Of a stretch of 64,000 nt of DNA, positions 30,874 through 40,967 are shown in pieces. Numbering within the stretch: position 1 is the first letter of the stretch; each line of letters begins with the position of its first letter. Origin of the DNA: an uncultured Pelagibacteraceae bacterium (lineage in GTDB: Bacteria; Pseudomonadota; Alphaproteobacteria; Pelagibacterales; Pelagibacteraceae); NCBI GenBank assembly GCA_902615975.1, contig CACMRC010000003.1, forward strand, positions 57,833 to 121,832, given 5' to 3'. The position numbers and the translations under genes were made by a program. The notes under the pieces are model-generated. The model searched no databases, was not told where the DNA came from, and saw only the letters and a program-made list of their open reading frames with translations.

Positions 30874-30949
30874 TGGCAGGAGCGGAGGGACTCGAACCCT
30901 CAGCCTCCGGTTTTGGAGACCGGCGCTCTACCAATTGAGCTACACTCCT
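30874..30949 (-). tRNA. trnW: tRNA-Trp (anticodon CCA)
   Basis: The reverse complement is AGGAGTGTAGCTCAATTGGTAGAGCGCCGGTCTCCAAAACCGGAGGCTGAGGGTTCGAGTCCCTCCGCTCCTGCCA. It folds as a cloverleaf by hand: acceptor AGGAGTG/CGCTCCT, anticodon stem CCGGT/ACCGG, loop CT-CCA-AA, T-loop TTCGAGT. The 3' CCA is encoded. Confidence 0.95.
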
Positions 30950-30959
30950 ATTTATAGAG

Positions 30960-32150
30960 TTACTCTATAATTTTTGTTACTACTCCTGCTCCAACAGTTC
31001 TTCCACCTTCTCTAATCGCAAAATTTAATTTCTCTGCCATTGCGATTGGAGTGATTAGTTTTACTGTAAATTTAGCGTCATCACCTGGCATAACCATTTC
31101 TGTACCAGCTGGTAACTCTACTTCACCTGTTACGTCTGTTGTTCTAAAATAAAACTGAGGTCTGTATTTAGTAAAGAAAGGAGTGTGTCTTCCACCTTCA
31201 TCTTTTTTAAGTACATACGCTTGAGCTTCAAATTTAGTGTGTGGAGTAATTGAACCAGGCTTACAAAGAACTTGACCTCTTTCGATATCAGTTCTTTCAA
31301 TACCTCTCAATAAAATTCCAACGTTATCACCAGCTTCACCAGAATCTAAAAGTTTTCTAAACATCTCAACTCCTGTACAAACTGATTTTTTAGTTTCTCT
31401 AATTCCAACTATTTCAACTTCCTCTCCAGTTTTAATAACACCAGACTCAACTCTTCCGGTTGCAACTGTTCCTCTTCCAGAAATTGAGAATACGTCCTCA
31501 ACTGGCATCAAAAATGGTTTATCAACTTCTCTAGCTGGTTGTGGAATATGTTCATCAACAGCTTTCATTAATTCTAAAATTGAATTTTTTCCAATTTCAT
31601 CATCTCTACCTTCAACTGCTGCTAAAGCTGAACCTTTAACGATTGGTGTTTTGTCACCTGGATATTTGTATGAAGTTAAAAGTTCTCTAATTTCCTCTTC
31701 AACAAGTTCGATCATTTCTTTATCATCAACCTGGTCTACTTTATTTAAGTAAACAACGATTGCAGGAATACCAACTTGTCTTCCCAAAAGAATGTGTTCT
31801 CTTGTTTGTGGCATTGGACCATCAGCTGCGTTAACAACTAAGATTGCTCCATCCATTTGTGCAGCACCAGTGATCATATTTTTAACATAGTCAGCGTGAC
31901 CAGGACAATCTACATGAGCATAGTGTCTTTTTTCAGTTTCATACTCAACGTGTGCTGTTGAAATTGTTATACCTCTCTCTTTTTCTTCAGGCGCTTTATC
32001 AATCTGGTCATAAGCAACTGCAGTTCCACCGCCCGCTTGTGCTAATACATTTGTAATCGCGGCAGTAAGAGTTGTTTTACCATGGTCGACATGACCTATA
32101 GTCCCAATGTTACAGTGGGGTTTGTTTCTTACAAATTTTTCTTTTGACAT
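30960..32150 (-). CDS. tuf: translation elongation factor Tu
   Basis: 396 aa. '[10 protein letters not shown]', 'DCPGHADY' and 'NKVD'. Sits in the tRNA-Tyr/Gly-tuf-tRNA-Trp-secE context. Confidence 0.99.
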
Positions 32151-32197
32151 TACGTTTTTACCTCAGTTTTTTTTTGTTTCTTATAATTTTAATTTCT

Positions 32198-32271
32198 TGG
32201 AGCGGGTAAAGGGAATCGAACCCTTACATCCAGCTTGGAAGGCTAGCGTTCTACCATTGAACTACACCCGC
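32198..32271 (-). tRNA. trnG: tRNA-Gly (anticodon UCC)
   Basis: The reverse complement is GCGGGTGTAGTTCAATGGTAGAACGCTAGCCTTCCAAGCTGGATGTAAGGGTTCGATTCCCTTTACCCGCTCCA. Anticodon stem CTAGC/GCTGG, loop CT-TCC-AA. CCA is encoded. Confidence 0.95.
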
Positions 32272-32315
32272 ACAACCCCAAGAGTAACACTCCATGTTAT
32301 CTAAAATTTATTAAA

Positions 32316-32401
32316 TGGTGGAGGGGGAAAGATTCGAACTTTCGAAGACCGAAGTCAACGGGTTTACAGCCCGCCCCATTTGACCGCTCTGGAACCCCTC
32401 C
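32316..32401 (-). tRNA. trnY: tRNA-Tyr (anticodon GUA), long variable arm
   Basis: The reverse complement is GGAGGGGTTCCAGAGCGGTCAAATGGGGCGGGCTGTAAACCCGTTGACTTCGGTCTTCGAAAGTTCGAATCTTTCCCCCTCCACCA. Loop CT-GTA-AA. 86 nt with a class II variable arm. CCA is encoded. Confidence 0.95.
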
Positions 32402-32530
32402 TTTGGGGAAGTGTCCCCTTGTTCAATAAAGCTTCAAATAACAAGCGTTTTATATATTTTATTTATGCAAATGCAACACGTGATTTAATAAGTAAATATT
32501 AAAAAAAACGTGTAAAACACTTAATAATTT

Positions 32531-33274
32531 ATGAATAAATCATCTTTTTTCATTGTTGGCCAACATGCAGTAATTGAAGCTCTTAGAAACCCCAAAAGAA
32601 AGGTTTTAAGAGTATTTTTAACAGAGGAATCTAAAAAAAATATTCATAGAAAGAATCCAAATAAAAATATTTTGGAAGATGTAAGGGTTTACTTTAAATC
32701 TAAAAAAGAATTAGACAAATACACTTCAAAAGAACAATTAATGCATAATGGTTATGTTGCTGAAATTGAACATTTAGATCAACCAGAGATAAAACAATTT
32801 ATAAAAAATAAAAATAATTTAACATTTGTTTGTCTCGATGAAGTTACTGATCCAAGAAATATTGGTTCATTAATCAGAAGTGCCGCATCATTTGATATTG
32901 ATGGATTAATAATTAAGGAAAGACATTTTCCTCGTGATAGTAAATTGATGTATAAATCAGCTAGTGGATGTATGGAACATATAAATATATTTCAAGTCTC
33001 TAACATTAATTCTACACTTAAAAATTTAAGAGAAAAAAATTTCTGGGTTTACGGTTTTGATACCAAAGGTCAAAAAGATTTCACTGACATCAAATGGAAA
33101 GGAAATAATATTCTTCTATTTGGGTCAGAAGGGTTTGGTATGAGAAAACACACAGGTAAATATGCAGATTTTTTTGTTAAAATTAATATTAATGAAGACA
33201 TCGAAAGTTTAAATATCTCAAATAGTGCTGCTATTGTGTTTCATCACCTCAGTTATTTAAAAAAAAAGAGTTGA
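32531..33274 (+). CDS. rlmB: SpoU/TrmH-family 23S rRNA 2'-O-methyltransferase (RlmB-like)
   Basis: N-terminal 'IVGQHAVIEALRNPKRKV' substrate-binding domain, then SpoU motifs 'DEVTDPRNIGSLIRSA', 'LLFGSEGFGM' and 'SLNISNSAAIV'. Confidence 0.85.
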   Translation: MNKSSFFIVGQHAVIEALRNPKRKVLRVFLTEESKKNIHRKNPNKNILEDVRVYFKSKKELDKYTSKEQLMHNGYVAEIEHLDQPEIKQFIKNKNNLTFVCLDEVTDPRNIGSLIRSAASFDIDGLIIKERHFPRDSKLMYKSASGCMEHINIFQVSNINSTLKNLREKNFWVYGFDTKGQKDFTDIKWKGNNILLFGSEGFGMRKHTGKYADFFVKININEDIESLNISNSAAIVFHHLSYLKKKS

Positions 33275-33307
33275 TTATTTAAGAAATAGTTAATAATTAT
33301 TGCTCAT

Positions 33308-33383
33308 GCCCTTGTAGCTCAGCTGGTAGAGCAATTGATTTGTAATCAATAGGTCCGCGGTTCGAATCCGTGCGGGGGCACCA
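33308..33383 (+). tRNA. trnT: tRNA-Thr (anticodon UGU)
   Basis: GCCCTTGTAGCTCAGCTGGTAGAGCAATTGATTTGTAATCAATAGGTCCGCGGTTCGAATCCGTGCGGGGGCACCA. Anticodon stem ATTGA/TCAAT, loop TT-TGT-AA. The acceptor stem has two G-U pairs. CCA is encoded. Confidence 0.93.
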
Positions 33384-35170: not shown

Positions 35171-35941
35171 TTAATTAATTTCTTTTCTTATTTGTTCAAT
35201 TTTAATTTTTTTTTGTAGACTTCTATTTTTGTCATAAAGAAGATTAAACTTTATTTTATTATTTATTTTTATAGTAATTGATTTAGCATTTCTTACTTCC
35301 AGATTATCTGCTACAGCACTTATTGGTCTTTTTGAAGGATTTAAGTTTTTTATAACAATTTTAGATTTATCATTAACAATTCTACCCTTCCATCTTCTTG
35401 GTCTAAAGGCACTTATTGGGGATATTGACAATTTTTTTGAATGAAGACTTAATATTGGTCCATGGACAGATAGATTGTAAGCTGTACTTCCAGCAGGCGT
35501 TGATACCAGCACACCATCTGAAACTAATTTTTTGATTATTTGTTTTGAGCCTTGCTTGATGGATAATGAAGCAGCTTGTCTACTTTGTCTAAGAACTGAT
35601 ACCTCATTAATTGCTATAGATTTCTTGGTTTGATTATTTTTATTTTTAACAATCATTTCTAATGGAGAAATTGAAACTAAATTTGCTTTTGACAAGTTTT
35701 TTAAAATATCTTTTGAGGAAAATTTATTCATAAGAAAACCATAATTTCCAGAATTAATCCCATAATAATGTTTGTTTGAATTTTTATTCTTTTTTAGTGT
35801 TTGAAGCATAAAACCATCTCCACCAATAACAATGATTAGATTATCTTGTTTTAAAGGCTTTGTTTTTATTTTTTTTAATAATAAATTTTTAATACTTAAA
35901 GATTTCTTGTTTTTATCTGAAATAATTTGAAGTTTATTCAT
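35171..35941 (-). CDS. nadK: NAD(+) kinase
   Basis: 'IVIGGDGFMLQT' (GGDG motif) and 'DGVLVSTPAGSTAYNLS'. 256 aa. Confidence 0.9.
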   Translation of the reverse strand: MNKLQIISDKNKKSLSIKNLLLKKIKTKPLKQDNLIIVIGGDGFMLQTLKKNKNSNKHYYGINSGNYGFLMNKFSSKDILKNLSKANLVSISPLEMIVKNKNNQTKKSIAINEVSVLRQSRQAASLSIKQGSKQIIKKLVSDGVLVSTPAGSTAYNLSVHGPILSLHSKKLSISPISAFRPRRWKGRIVNDKSKIVIKNLNPSKRPISAVADNLEVRNAKSITIKINNKIKFNLLYDKNRSLQKKIKIEQIRKEIN

Positions 35942-35945
35942 TTAG

Positions 35946-36031
35946 TGGTGCCCTCGGCCAGACTCGAACTGGCACTCCGCAAGCGGCAAGGATTTTAAGT
36001 CCTTTGTGTCTACCAATTTCACCACGAGGGC
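35946..36031 (-). tRNA. trnL: tRNA-Leu (anticodon UAA), intact
   Basis: The reverse complement is GCCCTCGTGGTGAAATTGGTAGACACAAAGGACTTAAAATCCTTGCCGCTTGCGGAGTGCCAGTTCGAGTCTGGCCGAGGGCACCA. Anticodon stem AAGGA/TCCTT, loop CT-TAA-AA, long variable arm. CCA is encoded. Confidence 0.95.
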
Positions 36032-36063
36032 ATTAATGAATTTCATGAGTGTTTATGCCAATA

Positions 36064-36092
36064 TTTATAATTGAACAAGAGAAATAAGTAAA
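36064..36092 (-). promoter_or_regulatory. candidate promoter of tRNA-Leu(UAA)
   Basis: The minus strand reads TTTACT (36092-36087), a 17-nt spacer, then TATAAA (36069-36064), about 33 nt upstream of the tRNA 5' end. The same arrangement is conserved in the duplicated flank at 38363-38391. Confidence 0.4.
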
Positions 36093-36103
36093 TTTTTTTT
36101 ATT

Positions 36104-36135
36104 TTATCTCCCTAGGTACTGGTCAGGTACTGGTT
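36104..36135. repeat. 32-bp direct repeat, copy 1 (contains tandem GGTACTGGT boxes 11 bp apart)
   Basis: 'ttatctccctaGGTACTGGTcaGGTACTGGTt' matches 38135-38166 at 28 of 32 positions. Lies between the tRNA-Leu flank and the stop of the last cassette ORF. Confidence 0.85.
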
Positions 36136-36155
36136 GTCCTATAAAGTCCTACAAA

Positions 36156-36485
36156 TTATATTACACTACAATTAAGGTAATAAGTACTTGTGGTAGTTTC
36201 ACTGGTCCAAATTTCAAAGCCCTTTCCATTCTTAAAATTAACCTTATGCCGTACATTAGACTTATTCCAATAATAATTGACCTCTGCACTTATATTATTT
36301 ATTTTTATTGAGGATGTTTTTAAAATATATCCGTCACTTAAAAATTGATCATTTTTAATCTCAAAAATTTCTTTAGATGTTTTGTTTTTAGAGTCGGTTA
36401 CTTCACAAATATATGTAATATTTTTTGCATATAGTACTGTTGACCAAAAAAAGAAAATAATAATAAAATTTAAAATTTTTTTCAC
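36156..36485 (-). CDS. exported hypothetical protein (109 aa, two Cys)
   Basis: Sec-type signal 'MKKILNFIIIFFFWSTVLYA|KN'. Cys27 ('TYICEV') and Cys106 ('LNCSVI', 3 residues from the end). ATGA overlap with the upstream ORF. No family recognised. Confidence 0.7.
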   Translation of the reverse strand: MKKILNFIIIFFFWSTVLYAKNITYICEVTDSKNKTSKEIFEIKNDQFLSDGYILKTSSIKINNISAEVNYYWNKSNVRHKVNFKNGKGFEIWTSETTTSTYYLNCSVI

Positions 36486-37186
36486 GAACAGCTATATTCT
36501 TGAAATGAAATTTTTTGAGTTTCAAAAGATGACATATACTTATCGATAATATTTCGTGCTTCAACTGATGTGTCTATAATTTTTTTCATATATCTATCAG
36601 ATTCTTCATAAAGATTTTTTCCTGGTTGCTGTTCTGTGAAATTTATTGAGTCTTTGTAAATTTTAGACAACTTATTAATAGATTTTTTTATATCCTTATG
36701 TTTATTTAAAAAAATATTATCAAATATGATAAATACTCTATCTAATTTTGTTCTGTTTTCGTCTATTTCATTAATTATATAATAGTATTTTTTTTTACTT
36801 GAAATGTGTCCTTCAATCCAAAACGAAACTTTTTTGGTTTCATCATAAAAAACAAAATAAATTGCTTTTGCAATCAAATCAGTACCATTTGAAGTAAGAC
36901 TTTCATTATATACATCAGCCCCATTTGGTAGTTTTTCACTACTTGGAAAAAAATCAGCAACTTCTTTAGCGTTAAAATGATTTATATAAAATTTTAAAGT
37001 TCGATCGTTTCTTGTGCATTTTATAACATTTTCTTTGCCTGCAAATAATTTCTCGTGTCCACCAAGAGTTATGGGTAGAATTTTACTCTTAAAAAACCAC
37101 TCTTTTGCTTTTGTAGCGTTTGTATCTGCATAAGACGAGGCGTACAAAAATAAAAAAACAAAAAAAGCTATAAAAAGTTTTTTCAT
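36482..37186 (-). CDS. exported hypothetical protein (234 aa, two Cys)
   Basis: Signal 'MKKLFIAFFVFLFLYASSYA|DT'. Cys57 and Cys233 ('EYSCS', penultimate residue). 'YYYIINEIDENRT' resembles 'FYVFEIDREQT' of the upstream ORF. 1-nt stop/start overlap with that ORF. Confidence 0.75.
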   Translation of the reverse strand: MKKLFIAFFVFLFLYASSYADTNATKAKEWFFKSKILPITLGGHEKLFAGKENVIKCTRNDRTLKFYINHFNAKEVADFFPSSEKLPNGADVYNESLTSNGTDLIAKAIYFVFYDETKKVSFWIEGHISSKKKYYYIINEIDENRTKLDRVFIIFDNIFLNKHKDIKKSINKLSKIYKDSINFTEQQPGKNLYEESDRYMKKIIDTSVEARNIIDKYMSSFETQKISFQEYSCS

Positions 37187-37755
37187 TATTTAATCTTACA
37201 TTTGTGTTCAAAATCGTCAATTAAAAGTGGTTTCTCATTTTTAATTATCACATCCAAATGAGATTTTATAAATTTCATTATTTTTTTTTCTTTATCTAAA
37301 GTTTCTTGGTCTAAATTACTTGAAAGACCTAATTTTTGAGTTGTTCCAGTTAGAGTGTATAAGTTTTCGGTAACAAAAATACTTTCTGCTAATGGGTAAG
37401 GAAAAGTCTGCTCTCTATCTATTTCAAACACATAGAATTTTAAAATATCTTCACCAGGAGTAAAAAACTCTGCTTGAATGTAATTTTCATCATATATGTA
37501 TCCTATTAAATTCTCTTGAATTTCTTGTCCAAAAACTAAGACCTCATTCCTTAAAATATTGCCATGAGAATATATCACGTAATCGTCATCAAAACTCTTT
37601 ATAATTTTTAAAGGAAACTTAATTGATGGATGATCTGTTCCAAAAACTGTTTGTAAAGTACAAGTGTATTCATTTTTAGAAATATCAGCGAATGATAAAT
37701 CAAAAAATAAAAAACTAAGAATAATGGCAATAATATTTTTTTTAAGTTTTATCAT
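37186..37755 (-). CDS. exported hypothetical protein (189 aa, two Cys)
   Basis: Signal 'MIKLKKNIIAIILSFLFFDLSFA|DI'. Cys32 ('EYTCTL') and Cys186 ('HKCKIK'). No family recognised. Confidence 0.75.
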   Translation of the reverse strand: MIKLKKNIIAIILSFLFFDLSFADISKNEYTCTLQTVFGTDHPSIKFPLKIIKSFDDDYVIYSHGNILRNEVLVFGQEIQENLIGYIYDENYIQAEFFTPGEDILKFYVFEIDREQTFPYPLAESIFVTENLYTLTGTTQKLGLSSNLDQETLDKEKKIMKFIKSHLDVIIKNEKPLLIDDFEHKCKIK

Positions 37756-37758
37756 ATT

Positions 37759-38118
37759 TTATTTACATGGAAAAACTCTGTACAAATAAGTTGATAGATA
37801 AAAAGCAACCTTATCATTATCTTTGTATTTTCCATTTTTTTTTGCATACATAATTTCAGAATCTATATAATTAATAAAATCATTGAGAGATGGCGACCAA
37901 TTTGAAGGCGGACAAAAAGTTTTTTGATTATATGCTAATGAAACTATTTTATTCCAAAAAATTGCTGAACCTGCAGCTAATACATAATTTTCTAAAACTG
38001 CTACGATTGGAGCATTTTTGCTATTCTTATCATTTAAATACTTGCCTACTGTCATTGTTGAATTAGCAGAATTTATATATACAAAATTTAAAATAATTAT
38101 TATTAAAATTTTTTTCAT
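37759..38118 (-). CDS. exported hypothetical protein (119 aa, two Cys); C-terminal half reminiscent of Rap1a/Tai4-type periplasmic immunity proteins
   Basis: Signal 'MKKILIIIILNFVYINSANS|T'. Cys69 ('TFCPPSNWSPSLNDFINYI') and Cys118 (terminal 'RVFPCK'). The resemblance is from my memory of the family pattern, with no search run. Confidence 0.7.
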   Translation of the reverse strand: MKKILIIIILNFVYINSANSTMTVGKYLNDKNSKNAPIVAVLENYVLAAGSAIFWNKIVSLAYNQKTFCPPSNWSPSLNDFINYIDSEIMYAKKNGKYKDNDKVAFYLSTYLYRVFPCK

Positions 38119-38134
38119 AATTTATCATATCATA

Positions 38135-38166
38135 TTATCTCTTTAGGTACTGGTTTGGTACTGGTT
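38135..38166. repeat. 32-bp direct repeat, copy 2 (tandem GGTACTGGT boxes)
   Basis: 'ttatctctttaGGTACTGGTttGGTACTGGTt' matches 36104-36135 at 28 of 32 positions. It starts 17 bp upstream (in the minus-strand sense) of the start codon of the first cassette ORF. Confidence 0.85.
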
Positions 38167-38242
38167 TTGAGATATTTAATAAGCTTAATTTCATTATATT
38201 TATTTAAATCTAAATTAAAGTTATGAGATTTTATAGGATGTT

Positions 38243-38272
38243 TAGACTACCTTGGACTACTATGGACTGACT
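38243..38272. repeat. three 10-bp-phased direct boxes TAGACTAC / TGGACTAC / TGGACTGA
   Basis: 'TAGACTACct TGGACTACta TGGACTGAct' read directly at 38243-38272, between repeat copy 2 and the decayed tRNA. Confidence 0.7.
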
Positions 38273-38283
38273 AAAAAGTGAAT

Positions 38284-38330
38284 CCCTCGGCTTTTAAGTC
38301 CTTTGTGTCTACCAATTTCACCACGAGGGC
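38284..38330 (-). pseudogene. decayed tRNA-Leu(UAA) copy with internal deletion of the 3' anticodon-stem strand, variable arm and T-arm
   Basis: 38292-38330 is identical to 35993-36031 (anticodon loop to the 5' end of the tRNA). 38284-38291 'ccctcggc' equals 35951-35958 (3' acceptor strand). The 34 nt between them in the intact gene (35959-35992) are missing and the CCA end is mutated. Confidence 0.8.
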
Positions 38331-38362
38331 ATTAATGAATTTCATGTGTGTTTACGCTAATA

Positions 38363-38391
38363 TTTATAATTGAACAAGTTTAATAAGTAAA
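38363..38391 (-). promoter_or_regulatory. duplicated copy of the tRNA-Leu promoter, now pointing into the four-ORF cassette
   Basis: The minus strand reads TTTACT (38391-38386), a 17-nt spacer, then TATAAA (38368-38363). Both hexamers and the spacing are identical to 36064-36092, although the flank has 6 substitutions elsewhere. Confidence 0.4.
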
Positions 38392-38402
38392 TTTTTTTAA
38401 TA

Positions 38403-39419
38403 TTAAATTATTTTTGAAATAAATTTAATTACAGAAAAAAAACCCATTTTTGGTCTGATTGCTGATCCTTTTTGACTTTTATCAGAATTATTTAAATAAT
38501 ACTTATGAGCATCTAACATAAGCTCAGCAGTGCTTTTAGTGGGTACAAAGTTTAAATCTTTTTTAATTCTTGAAATATCCAATACAATATTACTAACAAG
38601 GATTTTATTATGATAATCTATAAAATTTATAAAACGCAAAAAAGATAATATCTTCAAAATAAGCAGACCTAAATTTTTATTAAAATGTCTTATTTTAGAT
38701 TTTGAGCCAGTTTTATTTATAAGATATTCAAAAGTTTCTTTCATTGTCTCAACCTTTTCACATCCAATATTATAGACATGCTTTCCTGTTAAATTTATAG
38801 ATTTTTCAATTGCAATAAATAAATCGGATGCAGACACAAATTGTAGTTTATTAGAACCATCTCCTAAAATCCAAAGAGTACAATTATCTTTTAAAAACTC
38901 AAAAAGCACTCCCAGACGATGAGCTCTAGATTTATCAACAATAATTGGACACCTAAAAATTGAAATATTTAATTCAGAGTCCGTGTCCAATAAAAGTGTC
39001 TCAACTTCAAATTTTGTTATTCCATAATAATTTTTACATGAAATTGGTTCAGATTCACTAATTAAATAATCATAATTTTTTTCATAAAGTGAAAATGTTG
39101 AAGTAAAAATTAAATTTTCAACGTTATTTTTTATAGCTGATTTTTTTATGTTTTTAGATCCTTCTACATTTGTTTTATATATTTTCTTTTTGTCATGAGT
39201 ATCAAATATTTCAGATGCAAAATGAAAAATTATATCTGGTTTTTCTTTACTAATAACATCATCAATTTCTGCAAAATTTCCTATGTCTACTTTATAAAAA
39301 TTTGCTTCATTTGAACTAGATATATCAACAAATACTAATTCAAAATTATGGATAAAATATTCTTTAGCAAGATTGCCCAAAAAACCATTTGAACCTGTGA
39401 TTAATATTTTTTTTTTCAT
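38403..39419 (-). CDS. NAD-dependent sugar epimerase/dehydratase (extended SDR)
   Basis: Rossmann 'KILITGSNGFLGNL' (GxxGxxG) and catalytic 'YGITKFEVE' (YxxxK). 338 aa. Confidence 0.85.
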   Translation of the reverse strand: MKKKILITGSNGFLGNLAKEYFIHNFELVFVDISSSNEANFYKVDIGNFAEIDDVISKEKPDIIFHFASEIFDTHDKKKIYKTNVEGSKNIKKSAIKNNVENLIFTSTFSLYEKNYDYLISESEPISCKNYYGITKFEVETLLLDTDSELNISIFRCPIIVDKSRAHRLGVLFEFLKDNCTLWILGDGSNKLQFVSASDLFIAIEKSINLTGKHVYNIGCEKVETMKETFEYLINKTGSKSKIRHFNKNLGLLILKILSFLRFINFIDYHNKILVSNIVLDISRIKKDLNFVPTKSTAELMLDAHKYYLNNSDKSQKGSAIRPKMGFFSVIKFISKII

Positions 39420-39421
39420 GC

Positions 39422-40549
39422 TTAAACTAAATTATTTCTTTTTATATGATTGACAAAGAAAATTATAAAACTTGTAAAAATTAAAAACATTCCAGATTGA
39501 TAAAACATATCATTATCAATCAAATGTCTAATTATCCTATGAAAATAAAAATAGTAAATTGTTAAATATAACCCACATTTAGATATAGCAAATTTATAAT
39601 TTTTAATAACATAAATAAGCAAAGGTAGCATTAAAACATAATCATAGTTTGAGTGTGGCATAAAAATTAAAGGTAAGAAACAAATTACAGATAATTTTGC
39701 TAATTTATTTTTTATATCTTTTATTTGATATAAAAAATAAATATTCCCAAGTAAAACTATTCCTAATTGAATTATTTTATTTGTAACATTATTTTCCTTT
39801 AAAAAATAAATATTTATAATCGAATACAAGTCACCTGTTCTGGTATAATTACCTTGAAAATTCATTCTAAGTGGTTCAAAAAAATTGTAAATTAAATGAC
39901 TATTTGTATAGTAGCTGTAAAATAACCAGCCCAATATCGTTATAATTGAAGTTAATAATAATTTCTTAATTTTTTTTTCAACAAGTAAATTTAAAAATAA
40001 GATATAACCTGTGCTATATTTTACATATGAAATGCCTGATAAAATCAAATTAAAGTTTTTATATAGATTTGAGACTGTCAAGTAGGGTAACATTAAAAAA
40101 AATAACACCATTAGACTGTTCTGGCCCAGATTAAGTGTCATCCTTGTAGGATGGCAAGTTAAAAAAATTCCTAATATCAAATATGAAGAAAGAATAGATA
40201 CGTTATTTGATCTACAAAGAATGATTGGTATTAAAAAAGCAAAAAAAACATTAAGTATGATCCAAAAAATTTTTGCCTGTTCCCATTCTAGAAGAGTTAT
40301 CGGATATAAAAAAATAAATAAAAAATGCCCATATCTTCCATGTTGACATCCTAAAAAAACATCTCCTGTTGTCATCTGATATTCATAATGATTTATCCCA
40401 TCCCAAAAAAGTTTAGATGGTTGCCACATTAAATCACAACTATTGGATAAACCTTTAGAAATTGTTTGTATAAAAAAACCTACAACCAAAATTGATAGAA
40501 AAATAAATATTATTTTATTTCTTTTGCTTAAATTTAAAAAAAATTCCAT
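39422..40549 (-). CDS. polytopic inner-membrane protein, probable glycan polymerase / GT-C-type glycosyltransferase
   Basis: 375 aa, almost entirely hydrophobic, with at least 9 segments by eye and no soluble domain. 2-nt gap to the epimerase gene. The family assignment is inferred from architecture and context only. Confidence 0.6.
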   Translation of the reverse strand: MEFFLNLSKRNKIIFIFLSILVVGFFIQTISKGLSNSCDLMWQPSKLFWDGINHYEYQMTTGDVFLGCQHGRYGHFLFIFLYPITLLEWEQAKIFWIILNVFFAFLIPIILCRSNNVSILSSYLILGIFLTCHPTRMTLNLGQNSLMVLFFLMLPYLTVSNLYKNFNLILSGISYVKYSTGYILFLNLLVEKKIKKLLLTSIITILGWLFYSYYTNSHLIYNFFEPLRMNFQGNYTRTGDLYSIINIYFLKENNVTNKIIQLGIVLLGNIYFLYQIKDIKNKLAKLSVICFLPLIFMPHSNYDYVLMLPLLIYVIKNYKFAISKCGLYLTIYYFYFHRIIRHLIDNDMFYQSGMFLIFTSFIIFFVNHIKRNNLV

Positions 40550-40565
40550 TTTCTTTACTAAAATT

Positions 40566-40967
40566 TTATGAAACTAATGCTCTTTTTAAGTATTTGATAT
40601 CTAGATTACAATCTTTATATCCTCTCTTAACTACATTAAAATATCTTTCTGTAGGATACATAAATGGTGTTTTTTTTACCATTGTGTAAGTCATTACTTT
40701 TTTTCCATAATAATAAAAAAAATATTTTTGATAAAGAATTGGAAAATCTTCATATACATCTAATTTTTTTTCATCATTTTTAGAAATTTCAAATAAAGCT
40801 CCAGGAACAATAGAATTTTTTTTATACTCTATATCTGCTGCCCTATATTTGCTTCTAAAGGTTAATCTAAAATCCTTTAAATTAATTTTTTTTAAAAAAA
40901 TACTATCTTTACATCTACGTTTCATCTGAAAGTGATGAAGATTACTGCCGTAAGCAAAATACAACAT
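40566..40967 (-). CDS. gamma-glutamylcyclotransferase-like (AIG2/GGCT fold) protein
   Basis: N-terminal 'MLYFAYGSNL' (the YGSN motif of the GGCT fold) and 'LDVYEDFP'. 133 aa. Confidence 0.75.
   Translation of the reverse strand: MLYFAYGSNLHHFQMKRRCKDSIFLKKINLKDFRLTFRSKYRAADIEYKKNSIVPGALFEISKNDEKKLDVYEDFPILYQKYFFYYYGKKVMTYTMVKKTPFMYPTERYFNVVKRGYKDCNLDIKYLKRALVS

Follow-up and report, generated by a model that had tools for sequence, protein, structure and literature searches.

In this work we have analysed a window of 64,000 nucleotides (nt) from an uncultured Pelagibacteraceae bacterium (GenBank assembly GCA_902615975.1, contig CACMRC010000003.1, positions 57,833 to 121,832) and, within it, an islet of 2,299 bp which lies between an intact gene for tRNA-Leu(UAA) and a partial copy of the same gene. 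We propose that this islet is probably a cargo-only integrative cassette, mobilized in trans or in cis, which is a relative of the satellite-type elements of Pelagibacter and which replaces the 5' half of its target tRNA gene. The evidence comes from the anatomy of the insert, from an empty site and alternative cargos at the same locus of related genomes, from a conserved attachment module whose arm repeats match at the two ends, and from integrase-bearing relatives with the same arms.

The repeat pair and the partial tRNA copy

Part of the tRNA gene stands as a direct repeat on either side of the insert, and at one end of the insert an intact gene is restored. The full repeat, located with a repeat finder and a script, pairs positions 35990-36106 with 38289-38405 (117 nt with 9 mismatches, 92% identity, at a spacing of 2,299 bp). 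Read in the orientation of the tRNA, it consists of tRNA positions 1-39 and 75 nt of upstream flank, and it ends at position 39, the last base at the 3' edge of the anticodon loop. The longest exact block is 55 nt long (35993-36047 and 38292-38346), and beyond it 6 of the 52 positions differ between 36048-36099 and 38347-38398. An earlier description of this stretch, made from its letters only (the sequence-only reading), had placed the tRNA, the exact block, the six substitutions and the two sites of an octamer, 'ccctcggc', at coordinates which ARAGORN, the repeat finder and our script all reproduced. It had also described the islet as a discrete insertion without a recombinase, which agrees with our Pfam, PHROG and tblastn searches, and it had rightly noted that the duplicated part is the 5' half with its promoter flank. 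The 3' end of the tRNA gene, which is the part expected from the rule for tRNA integration of Williams (2002), as cited in a passage of 10.1101/2020.12.28.424599, is not what is repeated here.

Only the intact gene was called as a tRNA by ARAGORN when both copies were examined. An Rfam tRNA match at 35949-36031 (58.6 bits) was the sole RNA family found in 35800-38500, and the second copy, which matches tRNA-Leu at 39 of 39 positions, was called by neither program, that is, its cloverleaf was not recognized. How did this second copy arise? According to the sequence-only reading it was once a complete tRNA, formed by local tandem duplication of the whole gene, which then lost 34 internal nt and its CCA end. 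This explanation draws on GCCGAGGG, which follows position 39 of the partial copy, equals the T-stem/acceptor strand of the tRNA 3' part and is found nowhere else in the window; CCCTCGGC likewise occurs at 35951 and 38284 only. By our own estimate, an 8-mer match at the junction would arise by chance with a probability of roughly 40 x 4^-8, or about 6e-4.

The same break and the same arm recur, however, far outside this genome. After the half-tRNA, GCCGAGGGAT(TCAC or AGAA) is followed by AGTCAGTCCATAGTAGTCCAAGGTAGTCT and then by CATCCTATAAAATC in about 20 other Pelagibacter genomes, an exact junction search in metagenome contigs returned at least 120 stretches, and the pattern GCCGAGGGAT(TCAC/AGAA)..AGTCAGTCCATAGTAGTCC.. 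also follows position 39 in the attachment site (attP) of circular elements which encode an integrase. Since the junction and the next ~160 nt are identical in at least 120 independent contigs and in these circular attP sites, the supposed 34-nt deletion did not happen in this genome, and 'ccctcggc' is a heritable part of the arm of an element. Sister families with the same layout carry CGCAAnGGATTCAC, TAGTTTGA.. or AACATAGGGT.. at the same place. An acceptor-like stem can be drawn for the truncated copy, but it pairs no better than shuffled sequences (z = -0.41) and we rejected it as evidence of a tRNA-like fold. We therefore regard a local whole-tRNA duplication as highly improbable. It is possible that the arm itself derives from a fuller tRNA copy long ago, and 'ccctcggc' may be a distant relic of its 3' strand.

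Variation at the locus in related genomes

We compared the window with 80 orthologous Pelagibacter loci which were fetched via nadK. In 32 of the 80, one to three extra copies of tRNA positions 1-39 lie on the same strand, 1-5.6 kb upstream of the intact tRNA; a few of them reach position 40-44, and most also repeat the 75-nt flank. Locus L030 (the L numbers are our handles for loci and contigs) is an exact empty site, in which a GGACT-like gene, a GT87 glycosyltransferase, the epimerase, the flank, the tRNA and nadK follow one another without an insert, and at six other loci the GGACT-like gene stands directly before the flank and the tRNA. The sequence-only reading had predicted both empty sites and alleles with alternative cargo, and with L030 and the 32 loci with inserts both were found; the four open reading frames (ORFs) of the window are thus not a fixed property of this locus, at which empty and alternative-cargo alleles are common. 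The cargo differs almost everywhere among the cassettes. It includes trypsin-like peptidases, pilin-like proteins, a TRAP transporter with a dimethylformamidase-like enzyme, an ABC transporter, an ATP-grasp enzyme with a proteasome-type subunit, and a GIY-YIG endonuclease. No cassette was found to carry an integrase, either by Pfam searches with 20 representative cargo proteins or by tblastn with the two integrase families described below, and no integrase was seen at 50 of the 52 listed metagenome junctions with at least 1.5 kb of downstream sequence. In one cargo-only cassette (L048:8362-9783) the main cargo is a homing-endonuclease-like protein with GIY-YIG and NUMOD1 domains, a selfish gene.

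Other kinds of insert were also observed at this site. A podophage-type integrase of ~280 amino acids (aa), related to those of contigs L002, L005 and L011, is encoded in a single-cell genome (L026:8961-9996) directly upstream of tRNA-Leu, with three TGTGCAT-like repeats between integrase and tRNA; in this tRNA-Leu non-tRNA sequence has taken the place of the 5' part. The arrangement resembles what an HTVC019P-type pelagiphage integrated at this hotspot would show at its integrase end. Two loci (L078:8664-9996 and L054:8297-9976) contain a complete tRNA-Leu, an insert of 1.2-1.6 kb and then a tRNA 3' fragment (from about position 27-31) beside nadK. The insert of L078 has TGTGCAC-type repeats at its end, like the podophage arm, and a protein of the L054 insert has the motif LIYLDPPFN, which as a motif only is typical of DNA methyltransferases; both inserts lack an integrase and represent further types at this site. 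In three further loci (L066:7735-7778, L088:7735-7778 and L103:7734-7777) the partial tRNA copy extends to position 44, so as to include the complete anticodon stem, and is followed by unrelated sequence with minus-strand genes (for a 406-aa protein and a HAD hydrolase) and no arm motifs. They represent a different and probably older kind of rearrangement at this locus.

A shared attachment module

When the starts and ends of all inserts were aligned, one design proved common to 28 of them, including that of the window. In tRNA orientation it begins with the chromosomal flank and tRNA positions 1-39, followed by a GCCGAGGGAT-type start, three AGTCY repeats with a 10-nt period, ATCCTATAAAAT, an AT-rich spacer of ~60 nt and a twin repeat (two 8-9-mers with an 11-nt period) which leads into AGAGATAAT. 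Then comes the cargo, and after it TATAGGAnnTTATAGGA, the same twin repeat, GAGAGATAAAAT with a run of A, and a host-like 75-nt flank which abuts the next half-tRNA or the intact tRNA. The attachment module amounts to about 330 bp, and none of these inserts encodes an integrase. In the window the twin repeats form a second repeat pair just inside the ends of the islet (36101-36135 and 38132-38166), which was absent from the sequence-only reading.

The twin repeat agrees at both ends of one cassette and differs from cassette to cassette. More than 15 types were observed, among them CCAGTACC (that of the window), CCAGCACA, CTTGTACA, CTCGTACA, CTAGAAAC and CTAGTAGC, as well as CTAGTAC, CTGGTAC, CAGGAGC and CAAGAGC. 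By a crude count the two ends matched in 27 of 47 cassettes, whereas in 2,000 shuffles the number of matches averaged 4.0 and never exceeded 11. A few cassettes, among them L044:6486-9910, L120 and L160, have different twin repeats at their two ends (L044 starts with CAGCAC and ends with CTAGAGCA), and these may be fusions of two cassettes which lost the internal attachment site.

Integrase-bearing relatives

The 39-nt half alone is present on 23 viral contigs of two kinds. Podovirus-like contigs (L002, L005, L008, L011 and others) carry, in this order, an integrase of 280-300 aa, the half-tRNA and an RNA polymerase gene. The second kind comprises small elements with a tyrosine integrase of 545 aa (L001, L016, L020 and L022) or a related one of 515 aa (L017 and L019), the gene of which begins right after the arm that follows the half-tRNA, hereafter the P' arm, the arm on the other side of the tRNA flank being the P arm. 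An AEP/DUF5906 primase-helicase is encoded by L001 and is common to L016 and L022. In metagenomes, integrases of the same family stand behind the GCCGAGGGATTCAC arm on L177, L179, L107 and L212. Exact terminal overlaps in L001, L016, L020 and L177 define units of 7.7-8.9 kb (L177 closes at 8,800 bp and L001 at 7,700 bp), and L107 has an imperfect overlap of 404 nt with 35 mismatches and a unit of 8,813 bp. Two contigs from TARA and ENA (L230:1-17701 and L234:1-14033) are head-to-tail concatemers of two to three units of ~8 kb, again of integrase-primase elements. The integrase family itself belongs to the tyrosine recombinases (PF00589) and forms 115 clusters, all on contigs of at most 20 kb.

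The arms of these elements are built like those of the cassettes. Both arms bear tandem direct repeats with an 11-nt period, two on P and either two (cassettes) or three (autonomous elements) on P'. The types found in the integrase elements (CCAGTACC in L177, CCAGCACA in L179, CCTGTAC in L107 and CTCGTACA in L212) all occur among the cargo-only cassettes too, and the circular L177 combines the P' arm start of the window with the window's own repeat type, CCAGTACC. Where cassettes hold the host-like tRNA promoter flank, however, the circular integrase elements have a non-host flank of their own.

An AlphaFold model of the L177 integrase (mean pLDDT, the predicted local distance difference test, 80.8) has a disordered tail at residues 1-24 (pLDDT ~30), a sheet-plus-helix domain similar to P4-like arm-type binding domains (3jtz and 3rmp_C; target TM-score, or template modelling score, 0.74) and a recombinase body which matches the Tn1549, XerH and lambda integrases. 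Because the model matches arm-binding domains, the twin repeats are well explained as putative arm-type integrase sites. Arm repeats on both sides, together with an integrase that is predicted to have an N-terminal arm-binding domain, are what characterizes an attP of the lambda/P4 type. In the autonomous elements the three P' repeats overlap the beginning of the integrase gene, within its first ~25 codons (L177:2877-2960, L001:143-230 and L017:6380-6450), and because of this the N-terminal peptide of the integrase changes with the type of the DNA repeat. Repeats within the gene could also serve in autoregulation of the integrase.

Probable exchange of arms between cassettes

The four-gene cassette of the window is also present on TARA contigs L224-L229, at 96-97% nucleotide identity. 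On L224 the left context (the end of the epimerase gene) is that of the window, but both arms have CTATTACA as their twin repeat. Elsewhere in the P arm, and throughout the cassette-borne flank, L224 and the window agree completely, whereas their chromosomal flanks are only ~80% identical. Similarly, L071 has the same cargo as L073, but neither arm is of the same repeat type in the two. L225 shows a tandem, in which the P arm of an autonomous-type element, with its private promoter flank, is immediately followed by the cassette. Because the two arms are contiguous only in a circle, their concerted change suggests that the whole attachment module was exchanged in an excised circle, and this lends indirect support to the excision of cassettes.

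Could the islet instead be a dead scar, left by an autonomous satellite-type element which integrated, lost its integrase and replication genes and gained unrelated genes, so that it is now immobile and its conserved ends reflect recent ancestry only? The arms of the cassettes are clearly homologous to those of integrase-bearing elements, such decay has been described for cis-mobilizable elements (CIMEs; PMC5704250), and no excised form has been seen. A decaying element would hardly account, however, for the cargo of 28 cassettes beginning right after the P' twin repeat and ending right before the TATAGGA motif, nor for the agreement of the repeats between the two arms, which holds even where one cargo appears with two repeat types, as in the window and L224 or in L071 and L073. 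Moreover, no integrase fragments were found in the cassettes, and their host-like promoter flank is lacking in the autonomous elements. On balance we consider a dead scar unlikely.

Proposed mechanism

We suggest that the excised cassette would be a circle with one contiguous attachment site of about 330 bp in three parts. Its P arm would contain the TATAGGA twin motif, two ACCAGTACC arm repeats and GAGATAAAAT; the middle would consist of the host-like tRNA-Leu promoter flank and tRNA positions 1-39; and the P' arm would contain GCCGAGGGATTCAC, three AGTCY repeats, ATCCTATAAAAT, the AT-rich spacer and two more ACCAGTACC repeats. A tyrosine integrase of ~545 aa with a P4-type arm-binding domain would recombine this circle with the tRNA-Leu(UAA) gene of the chromosome, at the anticodon loop or beside it. 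This enzyme would be supplied by the related 8-9-kb circular or concatemeric satellite-type elements and not by the cassette, either acting in trans or from an autonomous element in tandem with the cassette, as in CIMEs. The expected product is the arrangement present in the window: the former promoter and 5' half of the gene stand orphaned at 38292-38405, which we read as attL, the cargo comes next and is co-directional with the tRNA, and the promoter and 5' half of the cassette are joined to the chromosomal 3' half, so that the tRNA is kept intact at what we read as attR. Repeated rounds would build arrays in which the newest cassette is nearest to nadK. Transcription from the orphaned tRNA promoter probably continues into the cargo; a scan found no terminator-like site between the orphaned flank and the tRNA, that is, across the whole unit.

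Several observations weigh against this proposal. No circular or excised form of the window cassette was seen, and both integrase families are absent by tblastn from the 64-kb window and from the 80 loci, the podophage-type integrase of L026 excepted. The promoter scan found 21 sites where 17.4 were expected; since this is no better than in shuffled sequence, the scan says little in such AT-rich DNA. On the 3' side of the loop, attP reads GCCGAGG and attB TCCTTGC, and because the two differ there the crossover can be placed only approximately. The autonomous-type arm next to the cassette on L225 has the repeat CTGGTACC and the cassette has CTATTACA, which leaves a strict matching of repeat to helper hypothetical. 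Finally, the 114-117 nt of host-like homology would also permit a RecA-dependent insertion.

Two small metagenome contigs bear on the question of excised forms. L140:1-1476 and L144:1-1628 have the GCCGAGGGAT junction and exact terminal overlaps of 43 and 60 nt, so that the units measure 1,433 and 1,568 bp. Such contigs may represent cargo-only circles after excision, but repeat-flanked cassettes could also give rise to them as an artefact of assembly; we did not accept them as proof of excision since identical flanking repeats produce the same assembly pattern.

The homology just mentioned is the basis of another explanation, in which the islet is a homologous-recombination cassette that entered by a RecA-dependent crossover in the 117-nt tRNA-plus-flank, or was swapped together with flanking core genes, with no site-specific integrase involved. 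The flank and 5' half of a cassette are 92-100% identical to the chromosome over their 114-117 nt, SAR11 bacteria have high recombination rates, and the surrounding region is itself variable, the epimerase and GT87 genes being present in 4-5 of the 80 loci. What this explanation leaves unaccounted for is the ~200 bp of conserved, non-homologous arms (three AGTCY units, matched twin repeats and TATAGGA) which persist despite unrelated cargo, and their identity to the attP of integrase elements; besides, the half-tRNA of 39 nt is all the homology that the autonomous relatives have when they integrate. We think it improbable, somewhat more so than a dead scar. The sequence-only reading had favoured a whole-tRNA duplication or a homologous-recombination cassette over an attL/attR pair, and here our conclusion departs from it: the repeats behave as the attL and attR of a tyrosine-integrase system which replaces the 5' half of the gene. 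Replacement of the 5' end at the SAR11 tRNA-Leu(TAA) gene has been shown experimentally for pelagiphages (bioRxiv 10.1101/410191).

Cargo genes and chromosomal neighbours

The features of the islet and its surroundings are listed in Table 1. All four cargo ORFs are on the strand of the tRNA and have hydrophobic, signal-like N-termini, and none of the four has a Pfam or PHROG family or a recombinase domain. No homologues were detected by tblastn in the 80 genome loci or in the 120 listed metagenome loci. Among 5.8 billion proteins, ORF B has only 3 homologous clusters and ORF C only 5, all of them unnamed, and an exact-sequence look-up of ORF B gave no match. These four orphan genes for secreted proteins show themselves to be horizontally acquired cargo.

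Beyond the epimerase, on the same side of the islet, lies the GT87 glycosyltransferase gene. Within this part of the window (38403-40967) the epimerase and GT87 genes are found in only 4-5 of the 80 related loci and the GGACT/AIG2-like gene (40566-40967) in 57; the stretch from the latter gene to the tRNA is a variable surface-sugar region which is independent of the cassette system. On the other side, four more tRNA genes (Trp, Gly, Tyr and Thr) are located at 30874-33383, 2.5-5 kb from tRNA-Leu.

Table 1. Features of the islet, its attachment module and the adjoining genes (positions in the 64,000-nt window)
Feature	Position	Strand	Remarks
tRNA-Leu(UAA), intact	35946-36031	minus	ARAGORN (anticodon taa); read as attR
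tRNA-Leu positions 40-86	35946-35992	minus	chromosomal portion
tRNA-Leu positions 1-39	35993-36031	minus	presumably supplied by the cassette; boundary at 39 recurs in most partial copies
Half-tRNA copy (tRNA-Leu positions 1-39, orphaned chromosomal)	38292-38330	minus	39/39 identity to tRNA; read as attL core
Cassette-borne tRNA upstream flank, 75 nt, presumed promoter	36032-36106	minus	100% identity to the flank which this cassette has on TARA contig L224
Original chromosomal upstream flank, presumed promoter, now facing the cargo	38331-38405	minus	upstream continuation (epimerase 3' end) as in empty-site genome L030
P-arm twin repeat, ACCAGTACC-TG-ACCAGTACC then TAGGGAGATAAAAT (tRNA orientation)	36101-36135	minus	candidate arm-type integrase sites
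P-arm units, GGTACTGGT	36115-36123 and 36126-36134	plus	same repeat type at the same place in circular element L177
GTAGGACTTTATAGGAC, cassette-family motif (TATAGGAnnTTATAGGA), cargo-proximal end of P arm	36136-36155	minus	conserved there in ~25 cassettes
P'-arm twin repeat, ACCAGTACC-AA-ACCAGTACC then TAAAGAGATAAT	38132-38166	minus	13 nt upstream of ORF D start codon
P'-arm units	38146-38154 and 38157-38165	plus	
ATCCTATAAAAT motif (tRNA orientation)	38228-38239	minus	inverted partner of 36136-36155
10-nt-period repeats (AGTC AGTCC ATAGT AGTCC AAGGT AGTCT)	38244-38272	minus	three AGTCY units after a truncated AGTC; conserved P'-arm feature, common to integrase-bearing elements
GCCGAGGGATTCAC, first P'-arm bases, includes 'ccctcggc'	38278-38291	minus	same place in at least 120 metagenome stretches and in attP of L177, L179, L107 and L212
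Cargo ORF A, 109 aa	36156-36485	minus	signal-peptide-like N-terminus, no family
Cargo ORF B, 234 aa	36482-37186	minus	signal-peptide-like N-terminus, no family
Cargo ORF C, 189 aa	37186-37755	minus	signal-peptide-like N-terminus, no family
Cargo ORF D, 119 aa	37759-38118	minus	signal-peptide-like N-terminus, no family
nadK (NAD kinase)	35171-35941	minus	Pfam NAD_kinase_C and NAD_kinase; immediately downstream of tRNA; comparison anchor
NAD-dependent epimerase/dehydratase	38403-39419	minus	Pfam Epimerase; chromosomal left neighbour; in only 4/80 loci

A possible gene-capture platform in SAR11

No bacterial group in the ocean is more abundant than SAR11, and its streamlined genomes have hypervariable regions of unclear origin. 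To our knowledge, these bacteria have long been regarded as nearly free of mobile elements. The locus studied here offers a concrete, sequence-defined mechanism for part of this hypervariability, at a hotspot which is occupied in ~40% of the genomes sampled. The uniform design of the cassettes keeps an essential tRNA expressed through their own promoter and 5' half, and it visibly links them to satellite-type elements from marine virus particles.

Taking all observations together, we tentatively put forward a broader reading, which we hold with less confidence than the nature of the islet itself. Perhaps the tRNA-Leu(UAA) gene of SAR11 is an integron-like platform for gene capture, which serves a large population of 1-5-kb cargo-only cassettes with a portable attP of ~330 bp, which includes a substitute promoter and 5' half for the tRNA. 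Insertion and removal of these cassettes would rely on borrowed integrases, those of virion- or vesicle-borne satellites, the 8-9-nt twin repeats would be an exchangeable 'address' for each integrase lineage, and this address would be switched by swapping the whole attachment module in the circular state. From the matched but variable arm repeats comes a directly testable hypothesis for the sorting of integrase-less DNA among helper integrases, and the platform, if real, would be a dedicated route of gene flow into SAR11.

Comparison with known systems

It is already known that integrative elements which target tRNA genes build additive islands with partial tRNAs, as do tycheposons, additive islands, virion-encapsidated integrative mobile elements (VEIMEs) and CIMEs. 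In the literature that we searched the present cassette family was not found described. What is apparently new is a uniform cargo-only cassette whose portable attP of ~330 bp includes a native-like promoter for the tRNA, the high frequency of this cassette at the locus, and matched, exchangeable arm repeats which it has in common with satellite-type integrase elements.

The HTVC019P-type pelagiphages described by Zhao et al. (bioRxiv 10.1101/410191) have the same target gene, and their attP contains the 5' part of the tRNA, by which the split gene is complemented. This attP lies between the integrase and RNA polymerase genes, as on L002, L005, L008, L011 and others. These phages differ from the cassettes in their integrase of 280-300 aa, which does not match the 545-aa family, in their arm sequences, and in size, being ~35-40 kb long as compared with 1-5 kb.

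VEIMEs and tycheposon-like elements are integrative satellites borne by virions or vesicles, with a tyrosine integrase and a primase (PMC9618062; 10.1101/2020.12.28.424599; PMC11876622). We liken the integrase-bearing relatives (L001, L177, L230 and others) to them by genes, size and form: they are 7.7-8.9 kb long, encode a tyrosine integrase and an AEP/DUF5906 primase-helicase, target a tRNA and appear as circles and as head-to-tail concatemers, which are a reported hallmark of the Pelagibacter VEIMEs (PMC9618062; PMC11876622). The window cassette shares the attachment-site architecture of these relatives. It lacks the hallmark genes (integrase, primase/replicase and packaging-related genes), whereas L001, L177, L230 and L234 have genes of this kind; it consists of attachment module and cargo only, and it has the host-like tRNA promoter flank which the autonomous elements are without. 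About 20% of VEIMEs have no integrase and may use that of another element (PMC9618062).

Like the CIMEs related to integrative and conjugative or mobilizable elements (ICE/IME) of Streptococcus (PMC5704250), the cassettes keep attL and attR without integrase or transfer genes, they can stand in tandem with autonomous elements by accretion, as on L225, and they form arrays by repeated integration at one tRNA. CIMEs, however, are described as arising by decay, with an irregular content and a location at the 3' ends of genes (PMC5704250), whereas the cassettes are uniform, have the same boundaries in 28 cases and replace the tRNA 5' half with its promoter. The arm repeats of the cassettes have been kept matched, suggesting that a function is maintained.

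A further parallel is with integron cassettes, which are also small, promoter-poor cargo units without a recombinase of their own, stacked at a fixed platform with the newest nearest to it and co-oriented with an upstream promoter. Here the platform is a tRNA gene, the attP is lambda-like with arm repeats, and each cassette brings a new copy of the promoter. We rejected membership of the integrons, as there is no attC-like structure and no IntI or attI nearby, and the boundaries are direct repeats of a tRNA half. Lastly, the additive flexible genomic islands (PMC10872708; PMC4898812) likewise form a variable region beside a tRNA gene and are punctuated by partial copies of that tRNA. In those islands it is the last ~20 bp, the 3' end, which is repeated, whereas at the locus described here each unit brings the 5' 39 nt and the promoter flank within a module of ~330 bp.

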